Positions 415 through 40,294 of a DNA stretch of 64,000 nucleotides are shown here, piece after piece (positions within the stretch are counted from its first letter, which is position 1; every line of letters begins with the position of its first letter). Made by a program: the position numbers and the translations under genes. Under the pieces are notes generated by a model. The model searched no databases. It was given only the letters and a program-made list of their open reading frames with translations, and was not told the DNA's origin. The DNA is from a virus (taxonomy: Duplodnaviria > Caudoviricetes), in IMG/VR virus record IMGVR_UViG_3300014205_000023, positions 1,481-65,480 of that record. One strand, given 5' to 3'.

Positions 415-1146
415 TCACAGTGCGGCGCCAAGGAACACGAGCCCGGCGGCCTCTGCATCCTTGTGCTTGCTGACCGGCAACAGCTTGGCGTCGCCCGGTA
501 CCCAGTAGGGAACGACCAGATCGCCGACCGTGACGCGCGTGCCCTTGCCGGTGTGCTTCCAGCGCTCGTGCGGCTCGTCCCTGTGCTCGTCGAGCGGCAC
601 TAGGCCGAACCGGCGCGCGGCAGGCTCCCACGCTTCGGGGATGTGCTTGACGTCCCCGTGATACCAGCGCACGGCGCGATCCACGTCGGTCTTGCCGATT
701 CGGATCGTGGTGAACGCCAGCGCACGGGTCGGCCCGGTGTTGATCCACTCGCGGCCGATTGGTTGCTCAGGTGCTGGCGCGGGCTCGTGCTCGTCGGCGC
801 CGACCATGACAGGGGGCGCGTCGAGCGGCGGGCTGTAGTCCTCGATAGGAACTAGGCCAGCGCTCTTGGCGTCCTTCCAGGTCTCGGCCGGCAACGCCTT
901 CGCCTCGCGGTGGCGCCAGTGGATGCGCCGCATCACCTTGCGCCCGTCAATCGTGAACAGCAGCGACACGTCGAGCGCTGCGCCTGGGTTGATCCATTGG
1001 CTTGGCTGCATAGTGTCTGCCACTGCGGCTTGCGCGGGGCCCTGGGCGGGCAGACCGAAGTCCGCCGCGCCCAGCGCCTGCGCAGGGTCGGAGGGGGAGG
1101 AGGCGGGGCCCTCCGACCGTCGCTTGTGCCTCCTAGATGCGCTCAC
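415..1146 (-). CDS. Hypothetical head-region protein with three internal ~50-aa repeats
   Basis: ORF abuts capsid stop. Repeats end AKSAGLV / ARRFGLV / AEAAGLV. Confidence 0.7.
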   Translation of the reverse strand: MSASRRHKRRSEGPASSPSDPAQALGAADFGLPAQGPAQAAVADTMQPSQWINPGAALDVSLLFTIDGRKVMRRIHWRHREAKALPAETWKDAKSAGLVPIEDYSPPLDAPPVMVGADEHEPAPAPEQPIGREWINTGPTRALAFTTIRIGKTDVDRAVRWYHGDVKHIPEAWEPAARRFGLVPLDEHRDEPHERWKHTGKGTRVTVGDLVVPYWVPGDAKLLPVSKHKDAEAAGLVFLGAAL

Positions 1147-1148
1147 GA

Positions 1149-2360
1149 TCAGATGGGGCTAGTGAGCAGGTAGCTGGTCGTGGCGGCCACAACCAACTCG
1201 TCTTCGAGCACGCTGACCTGGGCCTTGTAGCTGCCACCGTGACCGGCGAGCGGCTTGAACTCGACCTGAGTGAGCGGCTGGCCGCAGCGCAGCACCCAAC
1301 CGAAGGCGGCGTTGCGGATGCTGGGCGGGCCGCGCCGGACGATGCCGAACACGTCGGGCCACACGCGAAGGAAGGCAGCCGCGGCGCCCTCGGCCGAGCT
1401 GTCGTACCGGGCCTTCGTCACGAAGTAGTCGGCCGCGCCGAAGAACTTCGCGATCATCGCGGGAGTTGCGAGGCCGGGGCTGGAGCCGTTGTACTGGAAC
1501 AGCGCCAGAATGTCGGGGTGACGGCTGAGGACGTTGTAGACGCCGGACGAGCTGAAGAACACCCACTCGCCGCCGCCGAAGCCCTGCCAGCACGCATCCA
1601 TCGCGGTCTGGATGTCGGCGATCGGATTGCCGCCGCCGGCCGTGTTCCACCGGTCCGCCGCGGGAATGACCGCGGTGTTGGCGCCGTAGCTACCAGCTGC
1701 GCCGGCAATGGCTGCGATGCGCACTTCGCGCTGCAGGGCCTCGATGTCGGCAATGGCCTCGACCACGTCAACCATCTCGTCCAGCGGAGCGTCTTGATTC
1801 TGCAGGGTGCGAACCGAAACGCGATTGCTCAGCCCGTAGCACTCGCACGCATAGCTGGTCGTGCTGCGGGTCTCTTCGATCTCGTTCGCCTCGCCGCCGT
1901 CAGCCATCTGGTCGTTGGGCAAGCGGAGTCGGTCGCTCTGGCCGTAGGTCGGAATCACACCGCCTTCTTTGGCGACCTGAACCACCGGCATCAGCTCGGT
2001 GCCCACGTACGCCTCGTTGGCGTACTGCACCGACACGTTCGAGAGCGTCGAGTTGGTATGGACGTCGCCAGGAAGCACGCCCTTGGTGCGCAGGTCGACG
2101 AGACCACGGTTCGCGGCGGCAAAGGCCGCAACGTCGCGCGGGTCGTTCGAGCGGGCCACGTCGGCAAGGGCCGCGCGAAAGGCGCGATACTTCTGCCCCG
2201 CGGTCATGTTGCCAGTGCGCTCGGCGTGCTGCTCACGCCACCGAAGCAACGCCTGGTCCGTGAGAACCGGCGCCTGGTCTTGGACCTTGGCTGCGTCAAG
2301 CAGGCGCTTGACCTCGGCCACGTCGTCCTGAGTGAGCTGAACCAGCTGAGTGTTATCCAT
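1149..2360 (-). CDS. Major capsid protein (gpE-like) with ~90-aa N-terminal extension
   Basis: 403 aa; TNSTLSNVSVQYAN..YVGTELMPVVQV..GG.IPTYG pattern seen in gpE-family capsids; follows protease and decoration genes. Confidence 0.85.
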   Translation of the reverse strand: MDNTQLVQLTQDDVAEVKRLLDAAKVQDQAPVLTDQALLRWREQHAERTGNMTAGQKYRAFRAALADVARSNDPRDVAAFAAANRGLVDLRTKGVLPGDVHTNSTLSNVSVQYANEAYVGTELMPVVQVAKEGGVIPTYGQSDRLRLPNDQMADGGEANEIEETRSTTSYACECYGLSNRVSVRTLQNQDAPLDEMVDVVEAIADIEALQREVRIAAIAGAAGSYGANTAVIPAADRWNTAGGGNPIADIQTAMDACWQGFGGGEWVFFSSSGVYNVLSRHPDILALFQYNGSSPGLATPAMIAKFFGAADYFVTKARYDSSAEGAAAAFLRVWPDVFGIVRRGPPSIRNAAFGWVLRCGQPLTQVEFKPLAGHGGSYKAQVSVLEDELVVAATTSYLLTSPI

Positions 2361-2377
2361 TTTCTCTGTGTCCCGGG

Positions 2378-2788
2378 TCAGACCGACTCAACGAAAGAGC
2401 GGCCGTGGAAGTGCAGTCCAACGATGTCGCCGGCAACGCCGGTGTCTTCGAACACGCCGAAGGTCGGCGTCACCGTGTCGCCATCGGCCAACGCCGGGGC
2501 GTCACTGAAACCATCATTCATGGCATCCCACGCGGCGTAGACGCCAGCGGTTGCGCCGGCCGTGCCGACGACAACGGGGATGCAACCGGAGCCAATGGCG
2601 TAGACTTTCACGCCAGCTCCAGCCGCTGCGGTATGGGCCGCAACGTACATGCCACTGGCCGCGGTCGTGCAGTTCACGACCGTCGCGGCCAGTGCGGTTC
2701 GCTCAAGCAGGAAGCCGCGAGTCACGGCGCCGAGCGCCGTCACGGTCTTCTGCATGCTAAACTGCTCGTCAATGCGTCGAGTAGCCAT
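2378..2788 (-). CDS. Capsid decoration/cement protein (DUF2190-like), copy 2
   Basis: 136 aa, Ala/Gly-rich beta protein ending GVFEDTGVAGDIVGL; between scaffold and capsid genes. Confidence 0.75.
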   Translation of the reverse strand: MATRRIDEQFSMQKTVTALGAVTRGFLLERTALAATVVNCTTAASGMYVAAHTAAAGAGVKVYAIGSGCIPVVVGTAGATAGVYAAWDAMNDGFSDAPALADGDTVTPTFGVFEDTGVAGDIVGLHFHGRSFVESV

Positions 2789-2800
2789 GGCGTCTTGCTC

Positions 2801-3211
2801 CTACGCAGACTCGACGAACGTGCGAGGCTGGAACCAGAGGCCAACGATGTCGCCCGCAACGCCGCTGTCCTCGAACACGCCGTAAACGGCCGTGACGGTG
2901 TTGCCGTCGGCCAATGCTGGCGCGTTGGTAAAGCCGTCGTTCGCGGCTGCCCATGCAGCGTAGGATCCGGCCGTTGCGCCACCGGTGCCGACCTCGACAG
3001 GGATGCAACCGCAGCCGGGCCCGTACACCTTGACGCTCGCCCCAGCCGCGCCGGTCTCGGCAGCGACGTACATTCCGATCGTCGCCGTGGTGCAGTTGTT
3101 CACAGTCGCGGCGCCCGCGGTGCGCTCCAGCAAGTAGCCGACGGTCGCAGCGCCAGCGGCAACGACGGTCTTTTCCATCGCGTACAGTTCATTGATGCGT
3201 CGAGTGGCCAT
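2801..3211 (-). CDS. Capsid decoration/cement protein (DUF2190-like), copy 1
   Basis: 136 aa; colinear with 2378..2788, about 99 of 136 residues identical by hand alignment. Confidence 0.75.
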   Translation of the reverse strand: MATRRINELYAMEKTVVAAGAATVGYLLERTAGAATVNNCTTATIGMYVAAETGAAGASVKVYGPGCGCIPVEVGTGGATAGSYAAWAAANDGFTNAPALADGNTVTAVYGVFEDSGVAGDIVGLWFQPRTFVESA

Positions 3212-10309: not shown

Positions 10310-10498
10310 CTACTTGGCGAGCCCGTCTAGGTAGGCGAACCCTTCTGCGCGCAGCTTCGGGTTGGCACTCGTGATCGCCATGTGGGCGCCGGCGAGCCGA
10401 ACCAGGGCGCGCGCCTCTTCGATCGTGACCGCGTAGCCGCGCTCGGCCAGGTCGGCGCTGACCGCCTTGGCGATGCGCTCCAACTGGGCCGGCGTCAC
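10310..10498 (-). CDS. Hypothetical protein
   Basis: 62 aa; GTGA overlap with the upstream gene. Confidence 0.55.
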   Translation of the reverse strand: MTPAQLERIAKAVSADLAERGYAVTIEEARALVRLAGAHMAITSANPKLRAEGFAYLDGLAK

Positions 10499-10761
10499 GA
10501 CGCCACCTCGGCGCTGCGGACCTCGACCACCGGGCAGGTCATGCCGGTGATGCTGTACAGGTAGGCGCTCTGTCGGCTTGCGCGCACGTTGAGCGAGTAG
10601 ACGGCTCCGCGCTTTCCCTCGACCGCGTAGGTAGCGCAGACGTACTTGGCGCTGTTGGGCTGCGCGGCCATGTCGATGACCGTGGCGACCTTGTAGGTGC
10701 GCCCGTTCAGCTTGACGGTCTGGCCAACGGCGAGGGATGCGAGGTCAACGTTCGTGGTCAT
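10495..10761 (-). CDS. Hypothetical protein (ATG 10761 chosen)
   Basis: MTTNVDLASLAVGQTVKLNGRTYKV...; plausible composition, coupled to the next gene. Confidence 0.6.
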   Translation of the reverse strand: MTTNVDLASLAVGQTVKLNGRTYKVATVIDMAAQPNSAKYVCATYAVEGKRGAVYSLNVRASRQSAYLYSITGMTCPVVEVRSAEVAS

Positions 10762-10773
10762 GCCAACTAAGCA

Positions 10774-10792
10774 TTGCACGGTGCGTGCCAAC
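10774..10792. promoter_or_regulatory. Quasi-palindromic site TTGCACG-GTG-CGTGCCAAC (degenerate second copy at 10793-10807)
   Basis: Same arms as 11881-11900; the 13-bp GCACGGTGCGTGC is the exact reverse complement of 11884-11896. Confidence 0.6.
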
Positions 10793-10842
10793 GTTGCACG
10801 GTTCGTGTTTCGACTAGTTAGCGATGACGTATGGCGGTGACA

Positions 10843-10981
10843 CTATGACACCGCTGTCATAGCAGAAACCGCAAAGTGAGTAGCTGCGCGCACTTGACCC
10901 CATGACAGCCGTGTCATAGTTGCGCAAGTTTTGCGCGCACGCTTTTACGCATGTGTAGTGCGTTACCGCGTAGTGCGTTAC
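10843..10981. repeat. Cluster of palindromes and direct repeats (res-like or operator array)
   Basis: CTATGACA-CCGC-TGTCATAG (10843-62), CATGACA-GCCG-TGTCATAG (10901-19), TTGCGCAA (10920-27), GTAGTGCGTTAC x2 (10955, 10970). Confidence 0.7.
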
Positions 10982-11223
10982 GCGGTCGGTATCTTACGGT
11001 AGCCACGAGCGTCTAGCCCGGCTGCGTCTCGGCCAGCGAGCATCGCGGCCTTTAGAATCGGGTACGTGGCCAGCCAGTGCTGAAGCGTGCGGACCGGAAC
11101 GGCGAGCTTGGCGGAGGCATCCGGTACCGTTCGCGAGCTCGACAGGGCCGCCTCGACCTCGGCCGTGTGGCCCTGTTCGAGCCTGGCGCCCAACTCCCTG
11201 CTACGGGCCGAAGTGCGCGGCAT
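10978..11223 (-). CDS. Small HTH protein
   Basis: MPRTSARS...TVPDASAKLAVPVRTLQHWL; start overlaps recombinase stop (TGATG). Confidence 0.65.
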   Translation of the reverse strand: MPRTSARSRELGARLEQGHTAEVEAALSSSRTVPDASAKLAVPVRTLQHWLATYPILKAAMLAGRDAAGLDARGYRKIPTA

Positions 11224-11870
11224 CACGCGGCCCTCGCGAGCATGCGCAACACGCTGCCCTTGGTCCAGGAGTCTCCGGTGCAGTGCCCGGCGGCCGGCTT
11301 GTGCCCGGCAGCGGCGAGCTGGTCGGCAATGGCCTGGAACGAGTGGCCGTCGGCACGGAGCGCCGAGGCATAGTCTACGGTGGCCTGGTCGTGCTCTGCT
11401 GCGGCATGACCCAGCTTGCGCCCGGTGGCCTTCAGAGCGGCCAGGGCGTCCCTGGTGCGCTCTCCGATAGCCTCGCGCTCCCACTGGCCCACGCTGGCCA
11501 GCACGTTCAGCACGAGCCGGCCCATGGCGGTGCGGGCATCAATGTGCTCGCACACGGAGAGCAACGACTTGGATCCGGTAAAGTGCTTCTCAATCAGGGT
11601 GCTAAGATCGACCACTCCGCCGCGGGTGAGACGGTCCAGCTTGTAGACGAGCAGGGCGTCGGCCTCGCCAGCGTCTAGGCGAGACAGCGCCGAGCCAAGT
11701 CCTGCCCTGAGCAGGTTCTTGGCGCTAACGGCCTCCACCACGACGTCGACGAGTTCAACTCCGTTCGCGGCCGCGTATGCCGCGATGCCGGCCCGCTGAG
11801 CGTCGAGCCCCAGCCCGCTGTCAGCCTGCTTGCCCGTCGAGACCCGAATGTAACCGATTGCGCGTGCCAT
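11223..11870 (-). CDS. Serine recombinase (resolvase/invertase family) with short C-terminal DNA-binding domain
   Basis: GYIRVST catalytic Ser motif, LDAQR, VYKLDRLTR, VLASVGQWEREAIGERTRDAL. Confidence 0.92.
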   Translation of the reverse strand: MARAIGYIRVSTGKQADSGLGLDAQRAGIAAYAAANGVELVDVVVEAVSAKNLLRAGLGSALSRLDAGEADALLVYKLDRLTRGGVVDLSTLIEKHFTGSKSLLSVCEHIDARTAMGRLVLNVLASVGQWEREAIGERTRDALAALKATGRKLGHAAAEHDQATVDYASALRADGHSFQAIADQLAAAGHKPAAGHCTGDSWTKGSVLRMLARAA

Positions 11871-11880
11871 GCCCGCAACC

Positions 11881-11900
11881 GTTGCACGCACCGTGCCAAC
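11881..11900. promoter_or_regulatory. Quasi-palindromic site GTTGCACG-CAC-CGTGCCAAC, 10 nt upstream of recombinase ATG
   Basis: Matches the 10774-10792 site. Confidence 0.6.
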
Positions 11901-12573
11901 TATCGCGGGATGGTGGGGAAAAAATTGGGAGGGGAGGCCGCGTGTGTTTTTGTCGTCCCACGGAACACACGAACGCCCATGTAGGATACTGCGGGCAAGT
12001 GTCGTTGACGCGGTGCGCTTGGTCGGTTCGAGCGCCCAACGTCCGTTGCCCGTTCAGTGCTGCGCCCAACCACCCGTAACCACTAGCAGCCGACCACGTC
12101 TCAGTCCCAGCGGCCAGCGCCGCACAGTGGCGCCCAGTGTAGGACAACGCCGCCAGTTGCAGCATGTTGCCGCACCGTGTCGGCACGGCCATTGCGGGCG
12201 CTTGCCTACATCGTAGCTAAGAGTCCGAGGCGGCCAAGCGCGCATTGTGTGTCAGTTTTGACGCGGTGCGAACCGCTACTTCGCACTGTATCCAATCGTT
12301 CACACCGTGTCAGCCTTGACACGCCCACCCATCGCAGCACCATCCACCAACTCCCCGTGCCGCTCTGCTCCAGCCTGCCCCGTACGCCCTCTTGCCAGCG
12401 CACGCCCTAGCACACCAACCCGCTACCAGCCTGCCCTCAGCGTGTCACTGTGCGGCAGCGTTACCCCATCCTGGCCTTGTCGCTGCTGTGCTGCTTGACT
12501 CGTTGCTCAAGCTGGGGCGTTCTGTCGAGCGCCGGCACTGGCCTGTGCTGAGCGGGACGTTGTGCGCCGGCTG

Positions 12574-12843
12574 TCAGAGGTACGCTTCTGGCCAGCTCGT
12601 GCAGAGCCGGTCGCACTCGTCGGCGTAGTCGTGGGCGTCAGTCCAGCGAGTGGACAGGTCGCTGCGTGGCTGGGCTGTCACGTTGGCGTTGCGATCCGGG
12701 GCGTCTTGGCCTCGGGCAACGTCATCGTCTGCCACTTCGGCGACGTAGTACCAACTGGGATGCGGTGCCGTGGGTCCGCAATCGGCTGTAGACCGCATTG
12801 GATGGCCTGTCGGGTGCGCTTCGTCGCATGCCCTAGCGGGCAC
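12574..12843 (-). CDS. Possible hypothetical protein
   Basis: 89-aa ORF on the operon strand; no motif recognised. Confidence 0.3.
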   Translation of the reverse strand: MPARACDEAHPTGHPMRSTADCGPTAPHPSWYYVAEVADDDVARGQDAPDRNANVTAQPRSDLSTRWTDAHDYADECDRLCTSWPEAYL

Positions 12844-12909
12844 GCAACTCGCACCCCCTATACATTAGCGGCGCGATCTGCTTGTCAGCGCTTGCCAAAC
12901 AAGGATGCG

Positions 12910-13347
12910 TCATGGGTGGACGCGCCATCCTTGGACCGATTGTTCCTGCCGCTTCGCTGTGTTGCAACTATCTTCGGAATCGTCTCCGGGACCGCCCTTG
13001 GGATTCTCGTGACGCGCTGCGCCCTGTAATTCTGAGACGGCATCGGCCAGGGCGTCGAGTTGCTGCCGAAGCTCGCAGATGTCTCGGTCGTGGCCACTTA
13101 GGCGCTTGTGGTCTGCGTCCTCACCCTCTTCTGGGCCGCGCAGCTCGGAGAAGCTCTTGCGTAGCGCCGCCTCTGGCACGAGCCAGCGCCGGCCGTCGCG
13201 GTACAGGAGCTTGGTACCCACTACCAGCTGCCGACGAGACAGGCGACGAAGGGCTCGCTGCCGGCCAACTTCGCTTTCCGGCAGGCCCATCAGCTTGGCG
13301 ACCTGCCGCACCGTCAGGTACCCATACCAGCGTTGGCTTCGAGTCAT
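12910..13347 (-). CDS. HTH (MerR/xis-like) DNA-binding protein with coiled coil
   Basis: YLTVRQVAKLMGL...GRRWLVPEAALR; ATGA-coupled to the upstream gene. Confidence 0.7.
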   Translation of the reverse strand: MTRSQRWYGYLTVRQVAKLMGLPESEVGRQRALRRLSRRQLVVGTKLLYRDGRRWLVPEAALRKSFSELRGPEEGEDADHKRLSGHDRDICELRQQLDALADAVSELQGAARHENPKGGPGDDSEDSCNTAKRQEQSVQGWRVHP

Positions 13348-23076: not shown

Positions 23077-23270
23077 GGGCGCACCTCGGCGCCATGGTTC
23101 CGCCATGGTCCTGCAGTCAGCCATGGCCGAACGGCGCAGATAGCGTCAGCTACGGGCCAGCAATGTCCGGCACGTAGCCGAAGCCACGACATCAAGACGG
23201 TAGCGGGACTGGCGCGAAACTGGCAGACGTCTAGGCTGTTTCGCTCTTTTCCGCGCCGTGCCCATGGTCG
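23077..23270. other. Candidate attP region
   Basis: Only sizeable gap in the leftward operon, immediately after int. Arm-like repeats GCCATGG at 23091, 23102, 23120 (CCCATGG at 23261) and ACTGGC at 23208, 23219. Confidence 0.5.
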
Positions 23271-24304
23271 GTGATCACGGTTTCGAGCGGCGGCGCCAGG
23301 TTCACGACGTTGCGCAGGTTCGCCATGTGGTCGGGCAGCATGTGCGAATACCGCTCGGTCGTGTGCTGCGTCGTGTGGCCAAGGATCCGCGCCAGGTCGA
23401 ACATGCTCCCGCCGTTCGCGAGGAAGTGCGAGGAGAAGGTGTGTCGTAGCTGGTGGGCGCCGCCGCTCAACTCGGCGAGTTTGACCGCTCGCTGCCAGTG
23501 CTTCACGGGCCACTGCAGTCGGTGCCGACCGTAGCGCGAGCAGAACAGCGGGCCGCTCGGCAGCACCGGCCCGAGCGACGCGAGCGCAGCATCCGAGAGC
23601 GGAACTTCCCGAGCCCGCCCCGACTTCGGCCGCCACTCGCGCGTCACGGGCACGCGCACGAGCCGGGCATCGACGTCCACCCACTGCCACTCGGCCGCGA
23701 TGATCTCGCCGCAGCGCATCCCGGTGTTGACCGCGAACGTCACGAGCGGGGTCAGCCACCGGGCCGTGGCTGAGCATGCAGCGAACAAGCGCGCCAGTTC
23801 GTCCGCTCCGAACGCTCGCGCCCTCGACGGGCCCGACTCGCGCAGCGGCTTGATCGCTGGCCGGCTCACCGGCTGCCCGCTCGCGCGAGCCCAGGACAGA
23901 ACCGCCGACAGCGCGCGCAGCTCCGAGTTGACCGTCGAGGGGCGCATCCCGGCGCGCACGCGCGCGGCCTTGAACGCCTCGACCGTGGCCGTCGAGAGCG
24001 TAGCGAGCTTCGCGTTGCCCAGCGCGGAGCAAAGCGTTTCGATCTGGTAGCGTCTGGACTCGTGCCATGTCCTACGCCCCAGCTGCCTTTCCGCGTGCTC
24101 CCGGTAGCGGTGCGCGCAGAAGTCGGCGAACGTCATCCCGGCTCGGGCCTCCGGGCAGTCCTCGGCCCGCAGGCGCAGGCGCTCGCTCGCCTCGAACGCA
24201 TTCGCCTCGGCCTTCGAGCCCCTGACCAGCTTCTCGTGCGGCTTCCCGCCCGACCAGATCACTACCCGCCACTGCCCCTTGCGAGAGCTGCGATAGACCG
24301 GCAT
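23231..24304 (-). CDS. int: Tyrosine integrase
   Basis: NTGMRCGE (R), HQLRHTF (HxLR), LGH..TTERY (H, Y); N-terminal arm-binding-like segment. Confidence 0.95.
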   Translation of the reverse strand: MPVYRSSRKGQWRVVIWSGGKPHEKLVRGSKAEANAFEASERLRLRAEDCPEARAGMTFADFCAHRYREHAERQLGRRTWHESRRYQIETLCSALGNAKLATLSTATVEAFKAARVRAGMRPSTVNSELRALSAVLSWARASGQPVSRPAIKPLRESGPSRARAFGADELARLFAACSATARWLTPLVTFAVNTGMRCGEIIAAEWQWVDVDARLVRVPVTREWRPKSGRAREVPLSDAALASLGPVLPSGPLFCSRYGRHRLQWPVKHWQRAVKLAELSGGAHQLRHTFSSHFLANGGSMFDLARILGHTTQHTTERYSHMLPDHMANLRNVVNLAPPLETVITDHGHGAEKSETA

Positions 24305-26985: not shown

Positions 26986-27246
26986 ATGAAGGTGGCAACG
27001 ACGGCAGACCAGCGACGCACGGCGCGGCGCGTTCAACGGCTGCTCGACGCAGCACGCGGCGCCGACTGGCTCGCGACGATGACGACCGGCACGGCGCCGG
27101 CACTACTTGCCCGCCGCGCCCGTGAACTGCGCGACGAGCACCGGGACGAGATGCGCGAGGCGATCCGGGTGGTCGCTGCGCATGTAGACGAACGCGCGCG
27201 TAGCACGATGCGTGCCGAGACGGAGCGGGAGGCGACCAGTGTGTAA
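26986..27246 (+). CDS. Hypothetical protein
   Basis: First ORF after the rightward promoter; GAAAGGTGG RBS. Confidence 0.55.
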
Positions 27247-38882: not shown

Positions 38883-40294
38883 GACGTGGCCCTCGGCTCT
38901 ATCGTCGTCTCGTAGTAGCCCTTGCGTCCCTGCTCTCGGTGGTAGAAGTCGACGCGAATCACCCTGTTCGCGTGGTATCCCATCCCGTGCGCCCATGCGT
39001 CGGTCGGTGCCAGGGTGCCCAGGGCCTCCACGTACACGCCCTTGATCTCGTGCACCTTCTGGTGATGAATGTGACCCGTCAGCCAGCGCCTGTGCTTCGT
39101 TGCGCCCCAATCCTCGCTGCGCTTCTGCGCCATCAGCAGCGGCAGTTCTTCCAGCTTGGGGCCGTCTCCGTGCGTGAAGCCGAACAGGTTGGCGCCGAAC
39201 CGCAACCACCGGAACACGTCCGCGCTCTTGTCCACTGTCACGCGCGGGTCGTTGCGAAAGAATGCCTCGACGCCCAGGCCCAGGAACATCGCCGCTAGAG
39301 GATCATGATTCCCGGGGCATAGGACGACGTGCACGCGCTTGTGCCGGCGCAGGCAGGTATGCACAACGGCGCACGTGGTATTCAGCGCAACACGGGCAAC
39401 CTTCTGCAGTCGCGTGTCCGTGTCCAGTTGGTTGCCTGCCCGAGCGGTGCGCGCATTGTTGCTGTCGCAATGCACGAGGTCGCCAAGAATCGGCACCACG
39501 GCCAGGTCTGCCGGTACCGAGTTGTCGACCAGTTCTGCGATGGCCTCGACGTGTAGCCGCTCTGCAATGTCCGTGTCGTAGTCGGTGCCCGTCTCGTTCG
39601 CCCAGGCGTACATTCCAAAATGGGCGTCAACGATTGGATACATTGCGAGCCGGTCCGCGTCCGCCGTGAGCGGGTGCGGCTGCGGCTTGTGCGACAAGAA
39701 CCACGCATCCGGCAGGCCCTTGATGGCCTCGTGCATCCACGGAAGCAGGTCGTGGTCCGCGTCTCGCGCCGTCTTGACCCACTGCTGAACCGGCCGCCCG
39801 TCCTTGCCCAGCAGCGTCGAGACGCCGCGCAGGTGGTACAGGTCGGGGGCGCCCAGCGCATGGCAGGCCGGGTCTTTCGTGGGGTCGCCTGTTGCGCCCA
39901 CGGGCCCCGCGCTCGGCACGGTGTCGCGCGTGTTCACTTTCGGCGCTTGTTCACGACACATGAACGAATCTGGATCATGAACAGGTCGCATTCCCGGGAA
40001 GGCAACGAACGGCCCGGCCTGCTCGGTTACGCGCTCAACATGCCCGCCCGGTATCCACGGGAACGGGTTGGGCGGCGTTGGCCGCTCAGTCTCGACTGGC
40101 GCTGGCCCGTGGTAGCGCAGCACGATCGGGTCGGCCATCTCCTGGGCGCGCCGGCTGCCGAGCATATGATTGATGGCCCTGGGCGTGACCCCGTACGCCC
40201 GCGCGATATCGGCCTTGGTCTCGCGCGCGGCGAGTCGTCGCAGCACGTCGCCGATCTGCTCGTCGCTCCAAGCTGTGCCTGGTACCTTGCCCAT
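38879..40294 (-). CDS. Calcineurin-like metallophosphoesterase with N-terminal HTH
   Basis: DAHFG, GDLVH, GNHD, THGD, GHIHH; N-terminal KADIARAYGVTPRAINH. Confidence 0.85.
   Translation of the reverse strand: MGKVPGTAWSDEQIGDVLRRLAARETKADIARAYGVTPRAINHMLGSRRAQEMADPIVLRYHGPAPVETERPTPPNPFPWIPGGHVERVTEQAGPFVAFPGMRPVHDPDSFMCREQAPKVNTRDTVPSAGPVGATGDPTKDPACHALGAPDLYHLRGVSTLLGKDGRPVQQWVKTARDADHDLLPWMHEAIKGLPDAWFLSHKPQPHPLTADADRLAMYPIVDAHFGMYAWANETGTDYDTDIAERLHVEAIAELVDNSVPADLAVVPILGDLVHCDSNNARTARAGNQLDTDTRLQKVARVALNTTCAVVHTCLRRHKRVHVVLCPGNHDPLAAMFLGLGVEAFFRNDPRVTVDKSADVFRWLRFGANLFGFTHGDGPKLEELPLLMAQKRSEDWGATKHRRWLTGHIHHQKVHEIKGVYVEALGTLAPTDAWAHGMGYHANRVIRVDFYHREQGRKGYYETTIEPRATS

Follow-up and report, generated by a model that had tools for sequence, protein, structure and literature searches.

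Two 19-bp sites that flank a serine recombinase unit in a phage genome probably serve as -24/-12 cores for two sigma-54 (RpoN) promoters, both of which read in the same direction along the minus strand; one of these promoters, P-g88, would be equipped with a host-style enhancer. The stretch of DNA under analysis, hereafter the window, is 64,000 nucleotides long. If the sites are two promoters of this type, they mark two ordinary transcription units, and neither a switch in the DNA nor a mobile element is involved. The sequence match, the geometry, the conservation pattern and the association with the host are observed; from them we infer binding, activation, transcript starts, the host itself and read-through into the terminase genes.

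The paired sites and the genes around them

The features of the region are the following:

10182-10107, minus strand: tRNA-Met, after the 62-aa gene and followed by the small and large terminase genes
10498->10313, minus strand: 62-aa gene, after the 88-aa gene
10498..10761, minus strand: 88-aa gene (MTTN...), the first gene behind P-g88
10774-10792, read on the plus strand: left site, TTGCACGGTGCGTGCCAAC, exact
10775..10790, minus strand: P-g88, putative promoter with the sigma-54-type core TGGCACG-CACC-GTGCA, the same as the left-hand site
10981..11223, minus strand: 81-aa helix-turn-helix (HTH) protein, in TGATG overlap with the recombinase; stop at 10978-10980
11226..11870, minus strand: small serine recombinase, 215 aa (PF00239, E 1.1e-32; weak PF07508); stop at 11223-11225
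11882-11900, read on the plus strand: right site, TTGCACGCACCGTGCCAAC, exact
11883..11898, minus strand: P-rec, putative promoter with the sigma-54-type core TGGCACG-GTGC-GTGCA, the same as the right-hand site; score 14.5/15, joint best in the window; conserved in the relative L007 with a different spacer
11901..12910, minus strand: about 1 kb without a convincing gene, upstream of P-rec
23234-24304: tyrosine integrase

The original prediction described matching sites around a 1.1-kb unit that holds the recombinase, a coupled HTH gene and a palindrome-rich spacer, and all of these elements were located, the spacer with two dyads. The left and right sites agree at 16 of 19 positions, and the differences are confined to a 3-nt centre (GTG versus CAC). 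As had been described, the arms are in direct orientation and the centres are reverse complements, so that the central 13 bp of one site are the exact reverse complement of those of the other. The virus record (65,480 bp) has no further copy when one mismatch is allowed (the reversed control pattern yields 0), and an exact agreement of 16 bases lies far outside what 128 kb of strand would produce by chance. A partial third copy at 27201-27219 lies inside an open reading frame and was treated as a chance match. The predicted position just 5' of an ATG is also borne out: each site ends 12-13 nt ahead of a minus-strand start codon (11870 and 10761). No Shine-Dalgarno sequence and no sigma-70 -10/-35 element was found at either 19-bp site. 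The notion of bracketing needs qualification: the sites do flank the unit, but only since each of them precedes one of two successive co-directional transcription units.

The recombinase belongs to PF00239, with the N-terminal catalytic domain, the serine nucleophile and the Arg/Asp/Arg set. It carries Ser11, Arg9 and the DRLTR motif, and Y7, R9, S11, D79, R80 and R83 are invariant in 35 members of its family. Its C-terminus is a short HTH-like piece of the 'Recombinase' domain of large serine recombinases. The ATG of the 81-aa gene shares one base with the TGA stop of the recombinase gene, an overlap that couples the two genes in translation. The 81-aa protein has a predicted five-helix fold (pLDDT 86) and 68% identity to its counterpart in L007, and its distant relatives carry HTH_23 or HTH_28. 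A fold search returned only generic HTH matches. BLASTP detected no similarity to small terminase proteins or to the DNA-binding end of the activator of L242, and the comparison with the end of the L252 activator gave a weak profile match over the helix-turn-helix only (probability 16%). The phage also encodes a tyrosine integrase, as the original prediction had stated.

The 11901..12910 region may be a control region for P-rec. Several of its blocks recur in L007, namely GCACCGCGTCAACGAC (near -140), a tract of CCCTCCCAA-TTTT and repeats of TGTAGG, and it contains a sigma-70-like promoter match at 12313-12285.

Sigma-54-type cores and a candidate enhancer

Read on the minus strand, both sites are TGGCACG-N4-GTGCA, with the GG-N10-GC signature and 11 of the 12 positions of the sigma-54 consensus TGGCACG-N4-TTGC(T/A) (PMC7910581, PMC9765219). 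The mismatch is at -15, where every phage copy of the core has G or C and the consensus has T; validated promoters of M. xanthus also show G or C at the first T of TTGC (PMC7910581, PMC9765219). P-rec and P-g88 are the top two sigma-54-like sites in the window, with two sites scoring at least 14.5/15 against a shuffle mean of 0.23. When 12 correctly registered copies from 6 phage contigs were compared, TGGCA(C/T)G and (G/C)TGC(A/T) were invariant, while the positions of the N4 spacer took 3-4 different bases each. The GTG/CAC centre falls inside this unconserved spacer and would be devoid of function. Its reverse-complement relation can be explained either by chance (1 in 64) or by a loop flip after promoter duplication, the loop being that of a 5-bp GCACG/CGTGC inverted repeat. 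Sigma-54 does not need the GCACG-N3-CGTGC symmetry, which 3 of the 5 closest copies show.

Sigma-54 transcripts start 19 bp from the motif centre (PMC4591121), which corresponds here to motif position 27-28. The A of the ATG is found at motif position 29-30 in the window and in L007, L298, L268 and L283. Transcription from P-rec is therefore predicted to start at about 11872, 2 nt ahead of the recombinase ATG, and that from P-g88 at about 10764, 3 nt ahead of the ATG at 10761. With starts 2-3 nt before the ATG, the mRNAs would be nearly leaderless, and we know of no described class of sigma-54 promoters with leaderless mRNAs.

In the arrangement that we propose, P-rec would drive the serine recombinase gene together with the HTH gene that is coupled to it. 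P-g88, located about 1.1 kb downstream of P-rec, would drive the two small genes, and read-through from it would probably reach the tRNA-Met, terminase and head genes. The palindrome-rich spacer would be the enhancer of P-g88. Its elements are:

10844..10861: proximal dyad TATGACA-CCGC-TGTCATA; centred 70 bp before the middle of the P-g88 motif, near -88 relative to the predicted start
10901..10918: distal dyad CATGACA-GCCG-TGTCATA; centred 127 bp before the middle of the P-g88 motif, near -146 relative to the predicted start
10922..10936: small palindrome GCGCAAGTTTTGCGC, which borders the cassette on its upstream side and is kept in 3/3 cassette copies

A search of the spacer for TATGACA-N4-TGTCATA dyads gave 2 against 0.03 expected. 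Binding sites for activators of sigma-54 promoters (bEBPs) lie about 70-200 bp upstream, a range into which both dyads of P-g88 fall. A host activator, once bound to the dyads, would reach the closed sigma-54 complex through a DNA loop and open it. Since genes for sigma-54 and for an activator are both missing from the phage, it probably borrows those of the host. No ATGACA-N4-TGTCAT dyad was found in the DNA upstream of P-rec, and this promoter would need either another activator site or the enhancer that lies about 1 kb downstream.

Protein matches point to the Myxococcota as the probable phylum of the host. Terminase matches in this phylum reach 42% identity (E 1e-81), compared with a best E of 1e-28 for the phylum of an Actinomycetes metagenome-assembled genome; the sole named terminase match is Chondromyces, and the named recombinase matches are Sorangium and Polyangiaceae. 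The ATGACA-N4-TGTCAT dyad is present in 69 of 401 Myxococcota genomes, and the reversed control pattern gives a handful of matches. A sigma-54 motif is found 68-191 bp from the dyad in 14 of 45 places (0.8 expected), with 14 motifs firing away from the dyad and 1 toward it; the 14 cases include orthologous loci, so that the number of independent events is below 14. In 3 of the 5 Myxococcota genomes checked, a gene with the architecture FHA-GAF-Sigma54_activat-HTH_8 ends just upstream of the dyad; the checked genomes have 15-27 PF00158 activator genes each. The chromosomal unit consists of an FHA-GAF-AAA+-HTH_8 activator gene, one or more dyads, a sigma-54 promoter and a gene for a lipoprotein of about 180 aa, unnamed in NCBIfam. 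The phage cassette shares with it the dyad (the proximal copy is identical over 18 bp to the dyad that adjoins the FHA-GAF activator gene of the Myxococcota genome G324), the gap between dyad and promoter (54 nt in the phage, 52-62 nt in Myxococcota), the type of core and a first codon close behind the promoter. In contrast with the chromosomal unit, the phage copy has no adjoining activator gene and would drive phage genes.

The association between dyad and promoter extends to other viruses. Among 59 matches to dyad-N40-70-TGGCAYG in the viral collection, 18 have TGC at the -12 place, against about 1 expected, and the dyad-plus-promoter cassette is also found in phage contigs that lack a serine recombinase. 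The unit formed by enhancer, promoter and small gene is present once in the window and twice in tandem in L007, and L298 has at least 3 promoter copies; in all of them it lies between conserved phage genes.

Relatives and alternative readings

L007 is the only close relative with DNA, and it has the same recombinase-HTH unit at the same place. The centres of its sites are CCC and GAC around the unit and CAT in a third copy. Another relative, whose terminase is 67% identical, has its recombinase gene immediately 5' of the gene for the small terminase and lacks both the 81-aa gene and the second unit. More distant Myxococcota prophages with a related terminase showed neither recombinase nor motif near the terminase gene. 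Of the 161 other recombinase homologues, only L007 carries the motif upstream of the gene, and the idea that the motif is a property of the recombinase family was discarded with a single case in 162 loci; the L188 and L189 loci have sigma-70-like regions at that position. One contig from an independent assembly (L255), compared in order to detect inversion, is identical to the window. Other searches were fruitless: 50,697 phage records gave no blastn match to the region, exact peptides from three proteins (recombinase, 88-aa protein, terminase) led to no close relative in IMG/VR, and the HTH profile had no match in JGI metagenomes. The 7 matches to GTGCAACGTTGGCACG in IMG/VR were all due to chance. 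An extended sigma-54-type pattern retrieved 87 stretches from metagenomes; those inspected were unrelated sigma-54-like sequences, none with a relative of the unit.

Two of the readings in the original prediction involve recombination: the sites would be crossover sites of the serine recombinase, and the 1.1-kb unit would either invert, through the 13-bp inverted cores, or be excised, through the direct arms. A catalytically intact serine recombinase does lie between the sites, and the combination of exactly inverted central 13 bp and direct outer arms is indeed suggestive. We nevertheless regard such a role as very improbable. Serine recombinases cut around a central dinucleotide, and the 3-nt centre, being odd, places the dyad axis on a base pair. 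The GTG and CAC centres of the window are compatible in inverted alignment only, and the CCC and GAC centres that are partners in L007, neither identical nor complementary, are incompatible in either alignment; with CCC, GAC and CAT, the L007 centres do not fit as crossover sites. Furthermore, five other virus records that bear the cassette (one of them complete) have the sites but no PF00239 gene, the core and the dyads are also present in bacterial chromosomes, and nearly all other recombinase homologues (160 of 161) have no motif upstream. Across the 12 copies the left arm is invariant, and the matching positions of the right arm vary without compensating change. A second contig, from a different sample, keeps the recombinase unit in the same orientation according to its gene table, and inversion would only turn the unit's own genes, with no evident target to be switched. 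An invertible switch is therefore not upheld by the odd centre, the L007 centres or the records that have sites and no recombinase. Nor does the self-excising mini-element fare better: the relative with the 67%-identical terminase keeps the recombinase without the 81-aa gene, and the 1.1-kb segment is hence not a conserved insertable unit. The proposed check for relatives that lack exactly this segment revealed no empty site among the few relatives, and L007 keeps the unit in place. A genome-wide search for inverted repeats that might be other targets of the recombinase found nothing beyond chance; a 26-nt pair at 12281-12306 and 39623-39648, considered as an inversion target, was at about chance level.

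Two further explanations leave the DNA in place. One is that the sites are operators for a phage DNA-binding protein (the 81-aa HTH protein, a self-repressing recombinase as in Tn3/gamma-delta, or another regulator) at two promoters that are not sigma-54-dependent, their likeness to sigma-54 cores being a coincidence. The near-palindrome GCACG-N3-CGTGC in 3 of the 5 closest copies would suit an operator, as would a third half-site, CGTGCAAC, that adjoins the left site (site L), the coupling of the HTH gene to the recombinase and the lack of dyads at P-rec. We consider it unlikely, as the symmetry is not kept: positions 11-12 of the right arm vary while their partners, positions 6-7, are fixed, and no compensation is seen. 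Core and dyads are found, moreover, in host chromosomes and in virus records without a homologue of either the recombinase or the HTH protein, and neither site has a sigma-70-type -10 or -35 element. The autoregulatory operator pair contemplated in the original prediction thus survives in part: the sites appear to be regulatory DNA, but they fit sigma-54 cores and not operators of the recombinase or the HTH protein. The other explanation places the activity in RNA: the motif would fold into a hairpin just ahead of the start codon and regulate how read-through transcripts are translated or processed. Pairing within GCACG-N3-CGUGC is possible, and the AUG that follows at 12-13 nt lacks a Shine-Dalgarno sequence. 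The predicted folds differ, however, among copies, and their stability does not exceed that of shuffled sequences (z -0.9 to +1.7); in one copy (L007-3) the stem is impossible although TGGCACG and TGCA are retained. No Rfam family was matched and no stable or conserved hairpin was detected, making a function in RNA hardly credible.

Known counterparts and biological meaning

The sigma-54 promoters proposed here resemble classical enhancer-dependent promoters such as glnAp2, activated by NtrC, and those activated by Nla28 in M. xanthus: they have the same GG-N10-GC, agree with the consensus at 11 of 12 positions, lack -10/-35 elements and would need an AAA+ activator in trans, and P-g88 has its two dyads near -88 and -146. 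They differ in that the genome encodes neither sigma-54 nor the activator, in the G (or C) at -15 and in the nearly leaderless mRNA that is predicted, and also in that the whole enhancer-promoter unit recurs as a cassette before small accessory genes. Among phages, the Pseudomonas phage YuA (Ceyssens et al. 2008) reportedly has predicted sigma-54 promoters; both phages would use host sigma-54-type promoters, in different host groups, and for YuA we know of no connection with a particular enhancer of the host.

The hix/gix sites of Hin, Gin and Cin offer a parallel in the small serine recombinase and in the imperfect palindromes that flank a segment, which in the case of Hin holds the recombinase gene. 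Sites of this kind are, however, even-length, have a 2-bp core identical in both partners and need a Fis-bound enhancer, whereas the phage sites exist without a recombinase and have a 3-nt centre, which in L007 is not conserved between the partner sites. The res sites of Tn3/gamma-delta also consist of dyads that adjoin a resolvase-type gene, but the phage dyads are downstream of the recombinase operon and are found as well near sigma-54 activator genes in bacteria and in phages without resolvase. The recurrence of enhancer, promoter and small gene as a unit between conserved phage genes is reminiscent of phage morons; the difference is that the promoter is sigma-54-type with its own enhancer, and that no terminator was identified.

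A broader interpretation, possible but tentative, is that a temperate myxobacterial phage ties its serine recombinase and the entry to its packaging operon to a signalling pathway of the host by means of a copied enhancer of an FHA-GAF activator. The cassette would be portable, would yield leaderless mRNAs and would be shared among unrelated phages, and the 81-aa HTH protein could modulate the enhancer. If the sigma-54 reading is right, the region does not hold a new DNA switch; instead, phage genes, possibly including packaging genes, are plugged into sigma-54/activator signalling of the host. Control of phage genes by sigma-54 is, as far as we know, little documented in the literature. Promoters of the sigma-54 class stay shut until an ATPase under signal control opens them; their transcripts begin about 12 nt past the GC and depend on sigma-54 and on ATP hydrolysis by the activator. 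Because they are signal-gated, the phage would express these genes only with a specific host pathway on. That pathway would be the one of the FHA-GAF activator, whose normal target is an operon for an envelope lipoprotein. For this uncharacterised family of myxobacterial activators, the comparison yields ATGACA-N4-TGTCAT as a candidate binding site, along with an operon as target.

Two sites with sigma-54-type cores

The two 19-bp sites that surround the serine recombinase gene and its coupled HTH gene (10774-10792 and 11882-11900) are exact as originally described, and they are the sole copies in the 65,480-bp genome. The virus record, which is rated as complete, carries terminal repeats, and the window covers nearly all of it. 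Every gene around the sites lies on the minus strand, in the following order:

12910-11901, minus: gene-free stretch of ~1 kb, upstream of P-rec
11898->11883, minus: P-rec, the site before the recombinase gene, core TGGCACG-GTGC-GTGCA
11870->11226, minus: serine recombinase, 215 aa (PF00239, E 1.1e-32)
11223->10981, minus: 81-aa HTH gene, with an ATG overlapping the stop codon of the recombinase gene
Between the 81-aa and 88-aa genes, minus: spacer, 216 bp
10790->10775, minus: P-g88, the site before the 88-aa gene, core TGGCACG-CACC-GTGCA
After the spacer, minus: 88-aa gene, 62-aa gene, tRNA-Met, small terminase, large terminase

Both sites match 11 of the 12 positions of the sigma-54 consensus TGGCACG-N4-TTGC(T/A) (PMC7910581, PMC9765219), with exactly 10 nt from the GG to the GC doublet. 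Replacement of the first T of the -12 element by G or C is frequent in validated Myxococcus xanthus promoters (table in PMC9765219). By a simple weighted score, the sites are the top two of the window, and the number of sites scoring at least 14.5 of 15 is 2 versus a shuffle mean of 0.23. An ATG lies 12-13 nt past the end of each, and neither a Shine-Dalgarno sequence nor a sigma-70 -10 element was found before either ATG. If transcription starts 19 bp from the motif centre (PMC4591121), the predicted transcripts would begin 2-3 nt ahead of the ATG. A second TGGCACG is made by the first codons of the recombinase, ATG GCA CG, 28 nt past the -24 element of the promoter (window 11863-11870; 385-392 in the related contig L007); no -12 element follows it in either, and it may be a coincidence.

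Conservation of the sites and the recombination readings

The only relative found with DNA is L007, a 2.3-kb contig whose recombinase and 81-aa protein counterpart are 63% and 68% identical to those of the phage; on a sister contig from the same sample, the terminase is 66-69% identical. In L007 the motif stands before the recombinase gene as in the window, and the whole spacer cassette occurs twice in tandem, with a different small gene behind each copy. The site centres are CCC, GAC and CAT, and the third copy keeps TGGCACG and TGCA although it has lost the palindrome. When these sites were aligned with those of the window and with copies found later in other phage contigs (12 in all), TGGCA(C/T)G and (G/C)TGC(A/T) were invariant and four spacer positions varied freely. 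Changes at position 6 are not followed by the would-be palindrome partner, and RNA folding of the sites gave no consistent or unusually stable hairpin. Such a pattern of conservation is typical for a sigma-54 promoter and not for a symmetric binding site of a protein or a stem in RNA.

These observations bear on the proposal that the sites bound an invertible switch or a self-excising mini-element. The 3-nt "core" on which that proposal relied is part of the N4 spacer, and in L007 the cores on the two sides of the recombinase-HTH unit neither match nor complement each other; therefore, they would be unusable as partner sites by a serine recombinase. Recombination is thus not supported. That the centres of the two sites are reverse complements may be due to chance; an alternative inference is that duplication was followed by a flip of the 3-nt loop within the GCACG/CGTGC inverted repeat. 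The third possibility raised, an autoregulatory operator pair, pointed in the right direction in that the DNA appears regulatory; autoregulatory operators are disfavoured as the sites fit sigma-54 promoters. The sequence data are best explained by two sigma-54 promoters, of which one has a host-type enhancer.

The recombinase itself is intact, one of a large family of proteins 215-240 aa in length. In a relative with a 67%-identical terminase (the contig of protein P0124), the small terminase gene follows it immediately and the 81-aa gene is absent from between the two; three other loci (L120, L134, L150) have homologues at distances of 0.4-3.4 kb upstream of terminase genes, and in L189 one lies between replication genes and later genes. 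This recurrent position at the replication/packaging border may point to a function in connection with late genes or packaging, not integration. A search of the phage genome found no candidate substrate sites. The original prediction that the phage is temperate holds, since a tyrosine integrase, Dam and DnaB are encoded elsewhere in the genome.

The cassette in other phages

A scan of IMG/VR for the dyad followed by N40-70 and TGGCAYG returned 59 matches, 18 of which have TGC at the -12 place (~1 expected). In L298 (IMGVR_UViG_3300022206_000011, 880-2940, minus strand), three TGGCACG-N4-xTGCA copies are found, one with three dyads upstream. An identical leader, atgtatatctgc-ATGACGACG, stands behind two of the three, before different small genes, and resembles the ATGATGACGACG and ATGACCACG starts in L007 and the window. 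The locus looks like an L007-like array of sigma-54 promoter-plus-gene cassettes.

No PF00239 gene was found in five cassette-bearing virus records (one complete, one 85% complete), nor relatives of the recombinase or the 81-aa protein in the fetched cassette-bearing stretches. Among 161 other loci with a recombinase homologue, only L007 has the motif upstream. Judged by this distribution, the cassette is independent of the recombinase. No virus record searched encodes a sigma-54 or activator domain.

A different arrangement was seen in L284 (IMGVR_UViG_3300028595_000006), a complete 39-kb phage without a sigma-54 or activator gene: about 10 consensus or near-consensus sigma-54 motifs lie in tandem at 10616-10810, head to head on both strands with 39-40 nt spacing. 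Such an array might hold many closed complexes. Smaller versions are found in L299, L287 and L262.

The spacer dyads and their Myxococcota counterparts

The spacer contains two TATGACA-N4-TGTCATA dyads (0.03 expected), centred 70 and 127 bp upstream of P-g88. They are kept in all three cassette copies (one in the window, two in L007), and the DNA between dyad and promoter is constant in length and variable in sequence. A 12-bp direct repeat, GTAGTGCGTTAC, occurs twice at 10955-10981 and overlaps the end of the 81-aa gene.

With at most one mismatch, the dyad is present in 69 of 401 sampled Myxococcota genomes, versus only a handful for a reversed control pattern. At 14 of 45 fetched places, some of them orthologous so that the independent cases are fewer than 14, a motif of sigma-54 type with a score of 13 or more out of 15 (background 0.018 per place, or 0.8 in 45) lies 68-191 bp off and fires away from the dyad; at one of the 45 it fires toward it. 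In three of five genomes examined, a gene for a 600-650-aa activator with FHA, GAF, Sigma54_activat and HTH_8 domains ends just upstream of the dyad. The conserved unit (L242, G324:C1:7734500-7741500; L252, G173:C1:581500-588500; L248, G333:C29:17000-24000) carries one or two ATGACA-N4-TGTCAT dyads, one of which is identical over 18 bp to the proximal dyad of the phage. The gap from dyad to promoter is 52-62 nt, compared with 54 nt in the phage, and the promoter is followed by genes for a ~180-aa lipoprotein and a protein with a CarboxypepD_reg domain.

On sequence grounds, the spacer is best explained as an enhancer of host type. A res-like multi-site array for the recombinase had been proposed for 10843-10981; an enhancer fits better because the same dyads adjoin sigma-54 activator genes in bacterial chromosomes and occur in phages without a resolvase.

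The host of the phage is probably a member of the Myxococcota. Myxobacteria depend heavily on sigma-54, and counts in five genomes gave 15-27 activator genes per genome. The phage terminase found its best match in the 401 Myxococcota genomes at 42% identity (E 1e-81), with four matches below 1e-54; in a control, the phylum of an Actinomycetes MAG, the best was E 1e-28. The control sample includes one unpublished genome (G526), on which the comparison does not rest because the best control match is in another (G598). The only named terminase match is Chondromyces, and named recombinase matches are Sorangium and Polyangiaceae.

In the proposed mechanism, a host activator would bind the two dyads and open the sigma-54 closed complex at P-g88, so that the small genes, and probably the tRNA and packaging genes too, would be transcribed into an mRNA with almost no leader. 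P-rec has the same type of core, no ATGACA-N4-TGTCAT dyad, and ~200 bp of upstream sequence conserved with L007. It may be served by a separate activator site or by the enhancer 1 kb downstream; enhancers of the sigma-54 class can act at a distance, as established for NtrC. The ~1 kb upstream of the recombinase (11901-12910) has no convincing gene. Its blocks conserved with L007 are GCACCGCGTCAACGAC, which recurs at 12258-12270, repeats of TGTAGG/CCTACA, and a tract of CCCTCCCAA-TTTT; a sigma-70-like match lies at 12313-12285. The region could contain the sequences that control P-rec, a site for packaging or the substrate of the recombinase.

When 1.84 billion cluster representatives were searched with a profile of the 81-aa protein and its counterpart in L007, just 32 proteins matched; some of these are multi-HTH repeat proteins, up to 909 aa long, that match HTH_8 or HTH_23. 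In a profile comparison, the HTH of the 81-aa protein showed a weak alignment to the HTH of the host activator (probability 16%), a likeness that may serve as a lead only.

The FHA-GAF activator reached no named equivalog in NCBIfam. For this uncharacterised activator family, the Myxococcota unit provides a candidate binding site and a candidate target.
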